A stretch of 64,000 bases of DNA from Eledone cirrhosa (taxonomy: Eukaryota), in NCBI GenBank assembly GCA_964016885.1, contig OZ024754.1, positions 558,001 through 622,000 of the forward strand. Reading direction: 5' to 3'. Positions within the stretch are counted from its first letter, which is position 1; every line of letters begins with the position of its first letter. This document shows positions 5,677-41,172 of this stretch, piece by piece. A model generated the notes under the pieces. The model saw only the letters and a program-made list of their open reading frames with translations, made no database searches and was not told the origin of the DNA. The position numbers and the translations under genes were made by a program.

Positions 5677-11882
<6,206 letters not shown>

Positions 11883-12027
11883 TTTACTTATTGACACTTA
11901 TACGTACGACATACACACACACGCATACATATGCGTGCACACAGCAACACTCACACACACAACAAACACACACACACGCTACTCTACTCACTTACACGCA
12001 CACACACACATATATATATATATATAT

Positions 12028-21672
<9,645 letters not shown>

Positions 21673-21872
21673 TTAATTACTTTAAATATATATATTATGT
21701 TACTTGAAAGTCAAAAAATCCGCTTTACGCTCTTCACCCTCCAGCTACTCCACGAGGGGCTGCGGTCAGCCACAATCTCTCTCCCCCTTCCCCTCTCTCT
21801 TTCTTCCCTTTCCCCTCTCTCTCTCTTCCCCTTCCCCCTCTCTTCCCCTTCCCCTCTCTCTCTCTCTTAGCT

Positions 21873-25620: not shown

Positions 25621-34027
<8,407 letters not shown>

Positions 34028-34028
<1 letters not shown>

Positions 34029-34243
34029 TAAAATACAAATAATAATAAAATAGATGTTCTTTTGATCAATTAAATTTTATTATACATATTTCAGAAGAAA
34101 GAACATCTTTTTTATTAATATTTGTATTTTAACATTAACTCTGGAAATTTTTTTTTTTTTTTTTTTTTTAAAGATGTAGAGTGCTTCCAATCTACTGTAA
34201 AACTCATTCTTTGATGTACTCATTGAATCTTTTTTAACTCTTA
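34028..34243. mobile_element. Internally deleted relative of the 37415-37805 palindromic element
   Basis: Inverted arms TTAAAATACAAATAATAATAAAATAGATGTTCTTT / AAAGAACATCTTTTTTATTAATATTTGTATTTTAA. Shares TTTTATTATACATATTTCAGA and the tail TAACTC.GGAAA…GAGTGCTTC.AATCTA.TGT.AAACT…TCATTGAA with 37415-37805. Confidence 0.7.
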
Positions 34244-34272
34244 TATATATATATATAATATATACATACGAA

Positions 34273-37378: not shown

Positions 37379-37414
<36 letters not shown>

Positions 37415-37457
37415 AATTCAAAATATTAACAAATATAGACATTCATGTGATCAAGTA

Positions 37458-37524
37458 TATTTTATTATACATATTTCAGAGGTGCTGAGCTATTTTCAAC
37501 AGTACGTCCTCATCAGATAAAGTA
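37458..37524 (-). ncRNA. Minimal type I hammerhead ribozyme (left arm)
   Basis: Reverse complement reads TACTTTAT-CTGATGA-GGACGTACTG…CAGCACCTCT-GAAA-TATGTA-TA-ATAAAATA; one extra mismatch each in helix I and helix II. Confidence 0.72.
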
Positions 37525-37599
37525 AGTTGATGCTTGACATACTCTGACTATGTTGATGGTTAAAATTCAGTCATAGTCAAGGTATGTCAAGCATCAACT

Positions 37600-37666
37600 T
37601 ATTTTATCTGATGAGGACGTACTGTTGAAAATAGGTCAGTACCTCTGAAATATGTATAATAAAATA
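37600..37666 (+). ncRNA. Minimal type I hammerhead ribozyme (right arm)
   Basis: Helix I TATTTTAT/ATAAAATA; CTGATGA at 37608-37614; helix II GGA.GTACTG/CAGTAC.TCT; GAAA at 37647-37650; short helix III TATGTA; UH = TA, predicted cleavage after 37658. Confidence 0.82.
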
Positions 37667-37798
37667 TACATGATCACACGAATCTCTATATTTGTTAATA
37701 TTTTGAATTAATATTAATAACTCCGGAAAACCAAACTGTGGAGTGCTTCTAATCTATTGTGAAACTTTATTGATTTATTCATTGAACCTTGTTTAACC

Positions 37799-37841
<43 letters not shown>

Positions 37842-40214: not shown

Positions 40215-41172
40215 ATAATTGTTTCTAAGTCCAGCAATTTGAAGGGAAAAGGAAAGTCAATTAACCCTCTCTCACCTCTTTCTGTTCAAACTTGCTATAA
40301 CTGGCTGCTCATATTGATGTTAAGGTGTTCTCAAAATAAATATCATCAAAATCTCATATATTTGATATTATGTGAGATAATTGTGTAAGATAAAGCTTTT
40401 ACCACAAAAATACAATACTAAATATAGAGTAATGTAAATGCTAAAGGGTTAAATCGAACCCTGGTACTTTATTTTATTGACCCTGTAAGAATGAAAGGCA
40501 AAGCTAACCTGGTGAAATTAGAACTAAGAACGCAAAGGACCGTAACTATGCTGCAAAGCATATTGTCCAACACTCTACCGATACTGTCATTCCACCACCC
40601 TTCATTTAAATAATGATTTCTACTTTAGGCACAAGGCCAGCAATTTGGGGGAAGGGGAAAGTCGATTAAACGACCCCAGTGCATTACTGGTGCTTTATTT
40701 TATCAACCTCGTAAGGATGAAAGGCAAAGCTAACCTCGACAGGATTTGAACTCAGAAAGTAAAGAACCATAACTATATGCCACAAAGCATGTTGGTAATA
40801 ATTGTTTCTACTTTTGGCACAAGGCCAGCAGTTATCCAGTACATTACTGGTACTTTATTTTTTCGACCCCATATGGATGAAAGGCAAAGTTAACCTTGGC
40901 GGGATTTGAACTCAGATCGTAAAGGGACGTAACTATGCTGGAAAGCATGTCCGACCCTTTACCGATACTGCCAATTAACAGTAATAATTGTTTCTACTTT
41001 TGGCACAAGGCCAGCAATTATCCAGTACATTACGGGTACTTTATTTTATCGACCCCATAAGGATGAAAGGCAAAGTTAACCTCGGTGGGATTTGAACTCA
41101 GAATGGCAAGGGCCGTAACTCTATGCGTCAAAGCAAGGTGTCCGACCCTCTATCGATACTGCCAATCCACAG
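40215..41172 (-). mobile_element. Four head-to-tail copies of a tRNA-derived SINE with a Nin/Deu-like domain
   Basis: Units start at ~40215, 40609, 40797 and 40984. On the - strand each has a B-box-like GAGTTCAAATC followed by TTTGCCTTTCATCC…GGGGTCGATAAAATAAAGTACC. Confidence 0.85.
40265..40448. mobile_element. TTAA-flanked (piggyBac-like) MITE nested in a SINE
   Basis: TTAA at 40261-40264 and 40449-40452; CCCT…AAATGCTAAAGGG ends; body matches 50740-50933. Confidence 0.85.

Follow-up and report, generated by a model that had tools for sequence, protein, structure and literature searches.

The 64,000-nt window analysed here (Eledone cirrhosa, contig OZ024754.1, positions 558,001 to 622,000; coordinates below are those of the window) contains two inverted arms between runs of (TA)n, each with a hammerhead ribozyme motif, which raises the question of what left them there and by what route. 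The palindrome consists of two 5'-truncated, hammerhead-bearing pLTR ends of a Penelope-like element (PLE), joined head to head within (TA)n. For a PLE this is an ordinary locus and a new example of a known arrangement: pairs of hammerheads on opposite strands have already been published, as have inverted pLTRs and tails on one side only (PMC4209133, PMC8557442). The origin of the inverted arms and the one-sided tail is stated as open in the text of PMC8557442, and the family described below suggests a possible answer.

Anatomy of the locus

The target runs of (TA)n, identified by repeat calling, occupy 37379-37414 on the left and 37805-37838 on the right. Between them, the two inverted arms of about 138 bp described in an initial annotation were confirmed at 37415-37552 and 37572-37709 (138 bp, eight differences, 19 nt between them); the repeat finder lengthens the arms to 149 nt (93%), reaching into the TA runs. 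According to the family alignment, the left arm is a 5'-truncated pLTR copy on the minus strand, extending from 37574 to the fixed end termed 'short' at 37410, with positions 37410-37414 common to the arm and the left TA run. The right arm is a 5'-truncated pLTR copy plus tail on the plus strand, extending from 37572 to the fixed end termed 'long' at 37804. The two copies overlap in the microhomology CAT (37572-37574), which forms the head-to-head junction. What had been regarded as a unique 19-bp spacer (37553-37571, minus strand) is additional 5' pLTR sequence of the left copy, and the tail of about 95 bp, likewise regarded as unique, is the parent sequence from the short to the long end (37715-37804, plus strand, ~90 nt), which continues the pLTR in the parent element. 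Within the tail, 5 nt 3' of the short end, lies hairpin 1 (RCTCY-loop-GAGYGCT, 37720-37747, plus strand); its twin, hairpin 2, which the parent carries 3' of the long end, is missing from the palindrome copy.

Target-site duplications are unreadable inside (TA)n. No coding ORF was found near the locus, where only microsatellite frames and decayed retroelement pieces occur, and the arm differences gave no scars of A-to-I hyper-editing (2/8 are A>G on the plus strand and one on the minus strand). As a mobile-element fragment, the palindrome copy is likely inactive.

Elsewhere in the window, another fold-back, smaller and from a related subfamily, lies at the edge of the long TA array (34029-34251), with a short-ended inverted arm (~34037-34095) and a long-ended arm that carries hairpin 1; both arms start within helix II, so that no complete hammerhead is present. 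Degenerate (TA)n arrays of great length (2-8 kb) extend over 26-2220, 5678-11883, 16865-21695 and 25622-34028. At 40795-41166, a SINE-like repeat occurs as a tandem of two 186-bp units, and the same repeat interrupts several PLE copies elsewhere.

Hammerhead motifs

A type I descriptor, applied to both strands of 34501-64000, matched only the two motifs in the arms, compared with a mean of 0.01 matches in 100 Markov resamples. The right motif (37600-37666, plus strand) is composed of helix I (37600-37607/37659-37666, 8 bp), the CTGATGA core (37608-37614), helix II (37615-37624/37637-37646, nine pairs and one C.C mismatch), GAAA (37647-37650) and the helix III/loop ATATGTAT, with the triplet AUA and a predicted cut after 37658. 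A predicted distal helix I (37587-37591/37669-37673) is weakened in the palindrome copy by a change at 37670. With its core, three helices, AUA site and the covariation described below, the right arm is the complete type I hammerhead that it had been proposed to be, and the proposed very short, near-palindromic helix III of the dimer type corresponds to the self-complementary octamer AUAUGUAU at 37650-37657. For the left arm, the same motif on the minus strand was recovered by descriptor and fold (37458-37524, mirror cut site after 37466), but in decayed form: the descriptor match stands, whereas helix I and helix II are broken by substitutions at 37522 and 37484, both private to this copy (found in 0/75 and 0/76 other copies), and the hammerhead fold comes to +0.1 to +3.6 kcal/mol versus -8.3 kcal/mol for an alternative fold. 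No hammerhead model of Rfam matched either arm at E<=10, minimal PLE variants being defined by descriptors and not by Rfam models; the 15 Rfam matches at E<=10 include miRNA hairpin models, below threshold.

The initial annotation had further expected long-dsRNA folding and self-cleavage to compete. Whichever strand is transcribed, the antisense arm precedes the ribozyme arm in the RNA, and the duplex in read-through RNA (-216 and -205 kcal/mol for the two strands) is far stronger than the ribozyme fold (about -8.5 kcal/mol), so that the ribozymes are predicted to be sequestered in such RNA and a real competition is not expected. The ribozyme in the palindrome copy is likely silent; it comes from the parent, in which cleavage is likely limited to dimers or to RNA assisted by a protein. 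Among the 13 arm starts beyond the hammerhead core, none falls at the ribozyme cut site.

An alternative hairpin at 37582-37621, also seen in family copies, pairs sequence from GTATGTC with the CUGAUGA core; it is the minimum-energy fold in the palindrome's family and, as modelled, could hold the ribozyme off. Sister families possess a long distal helix I extension of unrelated sequence.

Family size and covariation

An arm search of the 3.0-Gb source genome returned 1,273 candidates, with 56 matches from the 40 that were scored. The 26-nt family core occurs in 3,895 exact genomic copies (reversed control 0), and a looser hammerhead frame with helix II left free in 41,366 (reversed control 0). 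The source genome thereby holds more than 41,000 copies of one hammerhead frame, to be compared with up to 120,000 hammerheads in axolotl according to a section heading in PMC7229834.

The 191 motifs collected fall into nine helix II clusters with 86% of cells paired, compared with 36-51% when the strands were slid and 69% when they were shuffled (0/2,000 shuffles), and helix III is fully self-complementary in 181 of them, including the change from AUAUAUAU to AUGCGCAU. In ten hand-chosen sequences, seven of the nine helix II pairs change on both sides (0/500 shuffles). As the sequences are related and the search patterns fix the core, these helix II and helix III figures are to be read as support and not as probabilities. 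Other genomic copies are thus found in the thousands and keep helix II covariation and helix III self-complementarity. For a sister family picked by its ORF, the hammerhead core was found behind the ORF in 12/20 loci.

Nesting of insertions from different PLE hammerhead families within one TA run is frequent (L014, L019, L021-L025, L030, L153, L169); each PLE insertion leaves TA targets, so the next one can nest in the same run.

Parent element

Parent copies were obtained from the best 40 of 361 candidates, which were scored, and have the layout pLTR-hammerhead-short end-hairpin 1-long end-hairpin 2-ATG-ORF-2 kb 3' UTR-pLTR. In long copies, the ORF shares the strand of the hammerhead and lies upstream of it, across the ~2 kb 3' UTR; in other copies, the tail continues into the ATG and RT. 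The hammerhead-to-hammerhead distance is about 4.5 kb (two parent copies). The single ORF contains the RT motifs QMDIASYY, ITMGSS, LYRDD and VNFLDVTL, followed by a C-terminal GIY-YIG endonuclease (LVYKC...YIG, R, NH, E, N). Among 20 fetched copies, an intact full ORF was not found, the longest open stretch being 750 aa.

In the ESM Atlas, clusters carrying GIY-YIG, RVT_1 and HTH_animal were retrieved at 0.96-0.98; in the look-alike clusters, GIY-YIG is annotated in 26-50% and RVT_1 in 18-77% of the members. Pfam gave no significant RT or GIY-YIG match for the parent proteins (best E 0.027, for the sister protein), a PDB sequence search with the parent protein returned nothing significant, and the AlphaFold model from its single sequence reached a pLDDT of 32. 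The linked RT and GIY-YIG ORF that the initial annotation had suggested looking for is thus present on the same strand in long copies, and together with the pLTR and the hammerhead in the same genome it bears out the suspected Penelope-like origin. The assignment to the Penelope-like family is near certain, and the parent is an autonomous PLE.

Judged by its motifs, the parent is of the Hydra-clade type (Craig et al. 2021, PMC8557442). With that clade it shares DKT in place of DKG (KSDKTNNL), RW(K/R) in the K-to-R variant RWR (RRLRWRAFHF, copy L039), the linker CxCX5C (CNCRNRSNC), the absence of CCHH, with one Cys in the GIY-YIG core, and CxxC and CxH surrounding the conserved E and N (CNLCTME ... 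NKKSELFSNCLH, copy L033); the canonical pLTR hammerhead and (TA)n insertion of the Hydra clade are both found as well. A position in the Neptune/Nematis clade (Neptune having been the first reading) was dropped, because the linker is CxCX5C and not CX2-5CxxC and CCHH is absent. Several features differ from the Hydra families in the text and supplement of PMC8557442: the parent here measures about 4.5 kb with a 2-kb 3' UTR, whereas described families are generally <3 kb; copies here number in the thousands; the tail is 90-100 nt long versus 30-40 nt there; and the hammerhead is unlike any in File S2, two short motifs being absent from the supplement text, and differs in sequence from that of Hydra-1_Obim.

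One copy, L043 (G000:C184:97657-101009, minus strand), contains in its first 1,500 nt six head-to-tail leader copies, each extending from the helix III/cut site to inside hairpin 2 and alternating with (TTAGGG)n-like runs, followed by the ORF, which is a telomere-like context for an endonuclease-bearing element.

Fixed ends

Insertions of the family end at two fixed stop sites, the short site at 37714 and the long site at 37804 (right-arm numbering). The count over 79 loci, after removal of two duplicates and with larger fetches in place of five small loci, was 63 short, 57 long, seven other and 21 read-through alignments; 120/127 terminal alignments thus stop at the two sites, with TA-rich sequence next in 97/120. 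Genome-wide, exact junctions into TA number 2,053 for the short and 1,756 for the long site, with 28 read-throughs, in agreement with the targeting of (TA)n proposed initially. In three sequencing runs of unstated kind, available as contigs, depth changes steeply at the long end and loose ends rich in TA occur there; these runs are silent on RNA. At both ends, copies share 2-6 nt of AT microhomology with (TA)n.

In divergent pairs, the two sites nearly always occur together. All 38 divergent pairs in the 79 loci combine one short with one long end, and an independent coordinate test found this combination in 18/19 divergent pairs (p 3e-5; 100 short and 74 long listed ends in the first 194 Mb of C1). 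Sister-family pairs were short+long in 7/7, read by eye among the pairs listed. The exception, L185 (G000:C1:58832800-58835100), is a true long/long divergent pair of 1.28 kb. Arms are without any overlap in 10/38 pairs. In 13 pairs, arms differ by 3.2 per 120 nt within an insertion versus 7.0 between insertions; the arms of the palindrome itself have six differences to each other versus a median of 5.5 to other copies, and gene conversion could be an alternative source of arm likeness. A partner arm was detected by script within 1.5 kb in 11/29 position-sampled loci, and many copies have no visible partner inside 3-kb loci, so that one-armed insertions may occur as well.

Centres and arm lengths of the palindromes differ between the loci inspected, which identifies the palindrome as an insertion product and not as a spreading unit; the distinct non-autonomous, ribozyme-bearing retroelement of the initial annotation is for this reason given up. 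The insertions have the architecture known for PLEs, namely 5' truncation, an inverted truncated pLTR and a one-sided tail of post-pLTR parent sequence.

Hairpins and 5' ends

In the parents, the motif RCTCY-loop-GAGYGCT is confined to two places in the unit, about 5-8 nt past the short end and 3-9 nt past the long end, with 0.006 occurrences expected by chance per element. Both hairpins are present in 5/6 parent copies of the palindrome's family (L044 being without a match for hairpin 1) and in 2/2 sister-family parent copies. Hairpin 1 is closed by an A-U pair and hairpin 2 by a G-C pair, and the predicted stability is weak (-1 to -6 kcal/mol). The motif was defined after two families; for a third, the hairpin after the long end was predicted beforehand and found with 43 matches (control 0), the test pattern itself requiring the motif, and a Hydra-like ORF start follows directly behind the hairpin in 13/15 loci (script). 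The position of a hairpin at each end point suggests that it likely tells the copying enzyme where to start; the motif could also be read on DNA instead of RNA. The loop of hairpin 1 (37728-37738 and family copies) is far more variable than the surrounding sequence.

The opposite, 5' ends of the arms are variable and cluster at one place: 17/35 and 10/16 arm starts fall in a 9-nt window at TCACT (p 2e-9 and 2e-7 versus uniform), with TATAAA 31 nt upstream and the hammerhead core 64 nt downstream. From these truncation points we infer a transcription start at TCACT. The arms of the palindrome begin about 6 nt (left) and about 28 nt after this candidate start, so that the putative TATA/Inr-like promoter is missing from the copy. 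A leader intron around the hammerhead, with GTATGTC at 37582 as a donor-like site and an AG behind the tail, was considered and is unsupported: GTAYGTC is kept in four families, a fifth is without it, and AG after the tail is absent in both sister parents.

In the literature searched, as text, no end-rule count, twin hairpins, 5' pile-up or twin-priming model for PLEs was found; figures and most supplements may hold hairpins.

Proposed insertion mechanism

Taken together, the ends and hairpins make it probable that the insertion arose by twin priming at two fixed RNA sites, each likely set by a hairpin and presumably near the RNA 5' end. A more specific version, in which a dimeric telomerase-related RT would copy a single RNA twice from two leader hairpins into cut (TA)n, is put forward tentatively, with slightly less than an even chance. 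In the proposed sequence of events, a probable protein dimer would bind the two hairpins in the mRNA 5' leader, the enzyme of the element would introduce a nick into each strand of the TA run, and one cDNA would be started at each fixed RNA site, the two sites being about 90-100 nt apart. As both sites would lie in the 5' leader, the cDNAs would run just 170-270 nt to the RNA 5' end, and their joining by microhomology would yield a promoter-less palindrome. Arms overlap in most pairs, so the same stretch would have been copied twice, either by re-reading of one RNA with strand displacement or from two RNAs of one source. PLE RTs are not known to carry RNase H, so one RNA could be read twice. 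If true, the two-hairpin rule would account for the inverted arm and the tail on one side, for the pairing of short with long ends, and for the thousands of hammerhead palindromes that lack a promoter.

A biochemical precedent exists in a Poseidon RT, by which each of the two strands is cut and extended and for which two internal RNA positions, bounding the tail, serve as starts (PMC11167929). Initiation there is described as proceeding without target homology, in contrast to the 2-6 nt that both sites share with (TA)n here. The short+long rule, the hairpin at a fixed offset and the 5' pile-up define exact mutations for this existing in vitro system.

The strongest competitor would place the decisive step on DNA: the duplicated inverted motif would be a GIY-YIG endonuclease site, and a longer cDNA or tandem intermediate would be resolved at two places. 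In PMC8557442, endonuclease-mediated resolution is held responsible for the tail, PMC11167929 cites that endonuclease recognition requires the tail in D. virilis, and the A-T/G-C covariation of the closing pair fits a DNA inverted repeat equally well. We nevertheless consider this model unlikely, because the tail boundaries are RT start sites in PMC11167929, because hairpin 2 is never inserted in long-ended copies and yet sets their end, as RNA 3' of a start would, and because the non-overlapping arms (10/38) match twin priming. These same pairs weigh against fold-back copying, in which one copy would be made and then copy itself into an inverted arm, as suggested for an antisense template in Adineta vaga (Arkhipova et al. 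2013, PMC3846280). Head-to-head palindromic junctions are indeed common and arms often share private variants, but neither arm contains the other in 10/38 pairs, which fold-back copying cannot produce and which argue for twin priming; in the palindrome, moreover, the arm with the short end extends farther in the 5' direction, the other arm contains 90 nt that the first lacks, and both outer ends are fixed and TA-joined. Self-priming is rated somewhat more doubtful still.

Considerably less probable than either is an independent non-autonomous palindromic retrozyme, with a ribozyme and its own antisense copy in one RNA. Thousands of short ORF-less copies, a real hammerhead and the derivation of retrozymes from PLE pLTRs (bioRxiv 10.64898/2026.07.22.740005) would suit it; against it, no two inspected palindromes share centre or arm lengths, the locus has no direct tandem of hammerhead units, only the inverted pair, the TATA/Inr site is missing from the copy, and the duplex would sequester the ribozyme. 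Lastly, long inverted repeats with TA flanks are also what a MITE of a TA-targeting DNA transposon would present, the hammerhead then being there by chance. The continuation of long copies into an RT and GIY-YIG ORF already refutes this, and the unequal ends, the variable 5' truncation and length and the covariation of helix II across families render it hardly credible, so that the plain MITE named as a fallback in the initial annotation can be set aside. TA-flanked fold-backs of such kind should be annotated as retroelement ends, and not as MITEs or miRNA genes. Twin priming at the two fixed sites is retained as the preferred reading.

Comparison with known systems

The insertion form has direct counterparts. 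An inverted 5'-truncated copy with a one-sided tail is described for PLEs in PMC8557442, and Penelope-13_HM, in the supplement of the same work, has an inverted 5'-truncated copy with a hammerhead on each strand. Adineta vaga Penelope likewise has an inverted pLTR, one arm of which may bear a tail, and its pLTR contains TATA and a TCACT initiator-like sequence, as here (PMC3846280).

The PLE hammerheads of Cervera and de la Pena (2014, PMC4209133) have in common with those of this family the type I fold in the pLTR, a long helix II and a short palindromic helix III suited to dimers, reside mostly in truncated elements and include opposite-strand pairs 100-700 bp apart, as here; their activity is described as low. 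There, a G10.1-C11.1 pair and an extra base are typical; here, helix II opens with G-U or A-U and A9 is not followed by an extra base, and a conserved C.C mismatch at the fourth position and an 8-bp helix I with a predicted distal extension distinguish the present motifs further.

With Poseidon_Ac (Frangieh et al. 2024, PMC11167929), the family shares two internal start sites bounding the tail and AT-rich targets; extension of both target strands, a predicted dimer and the dispensability of hammerhead cleavage for insertion are further points of likeness to the model proposed here. The Poseidon_Ac sites are located 111-118 nt into the ORF, at one AC-rich stem-loop and, according to the text of that report, with no target homology, whereas the sites here precede the ATG, are about 90-100 nt apart, have a hairpin each and use AT microhomology.

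Metazoan non-LTR retrozymes (PMC7229834; bioRxiv 10.64898/2026.07.22.740005) likewise carry type I hammerheads, are non-coding, reach high copy numbers and are tied to PLEs. They are direct tandems of 150-450-nt units, in contrast to the inverted pair here, which is cut from a coding element. A retrozyme-like arrangement was observed separately at L030:191-1121 (G000:C1:365527449-365530587), where a 310-bp direct tandem has a different type I hammerhead in each of the four units seen.
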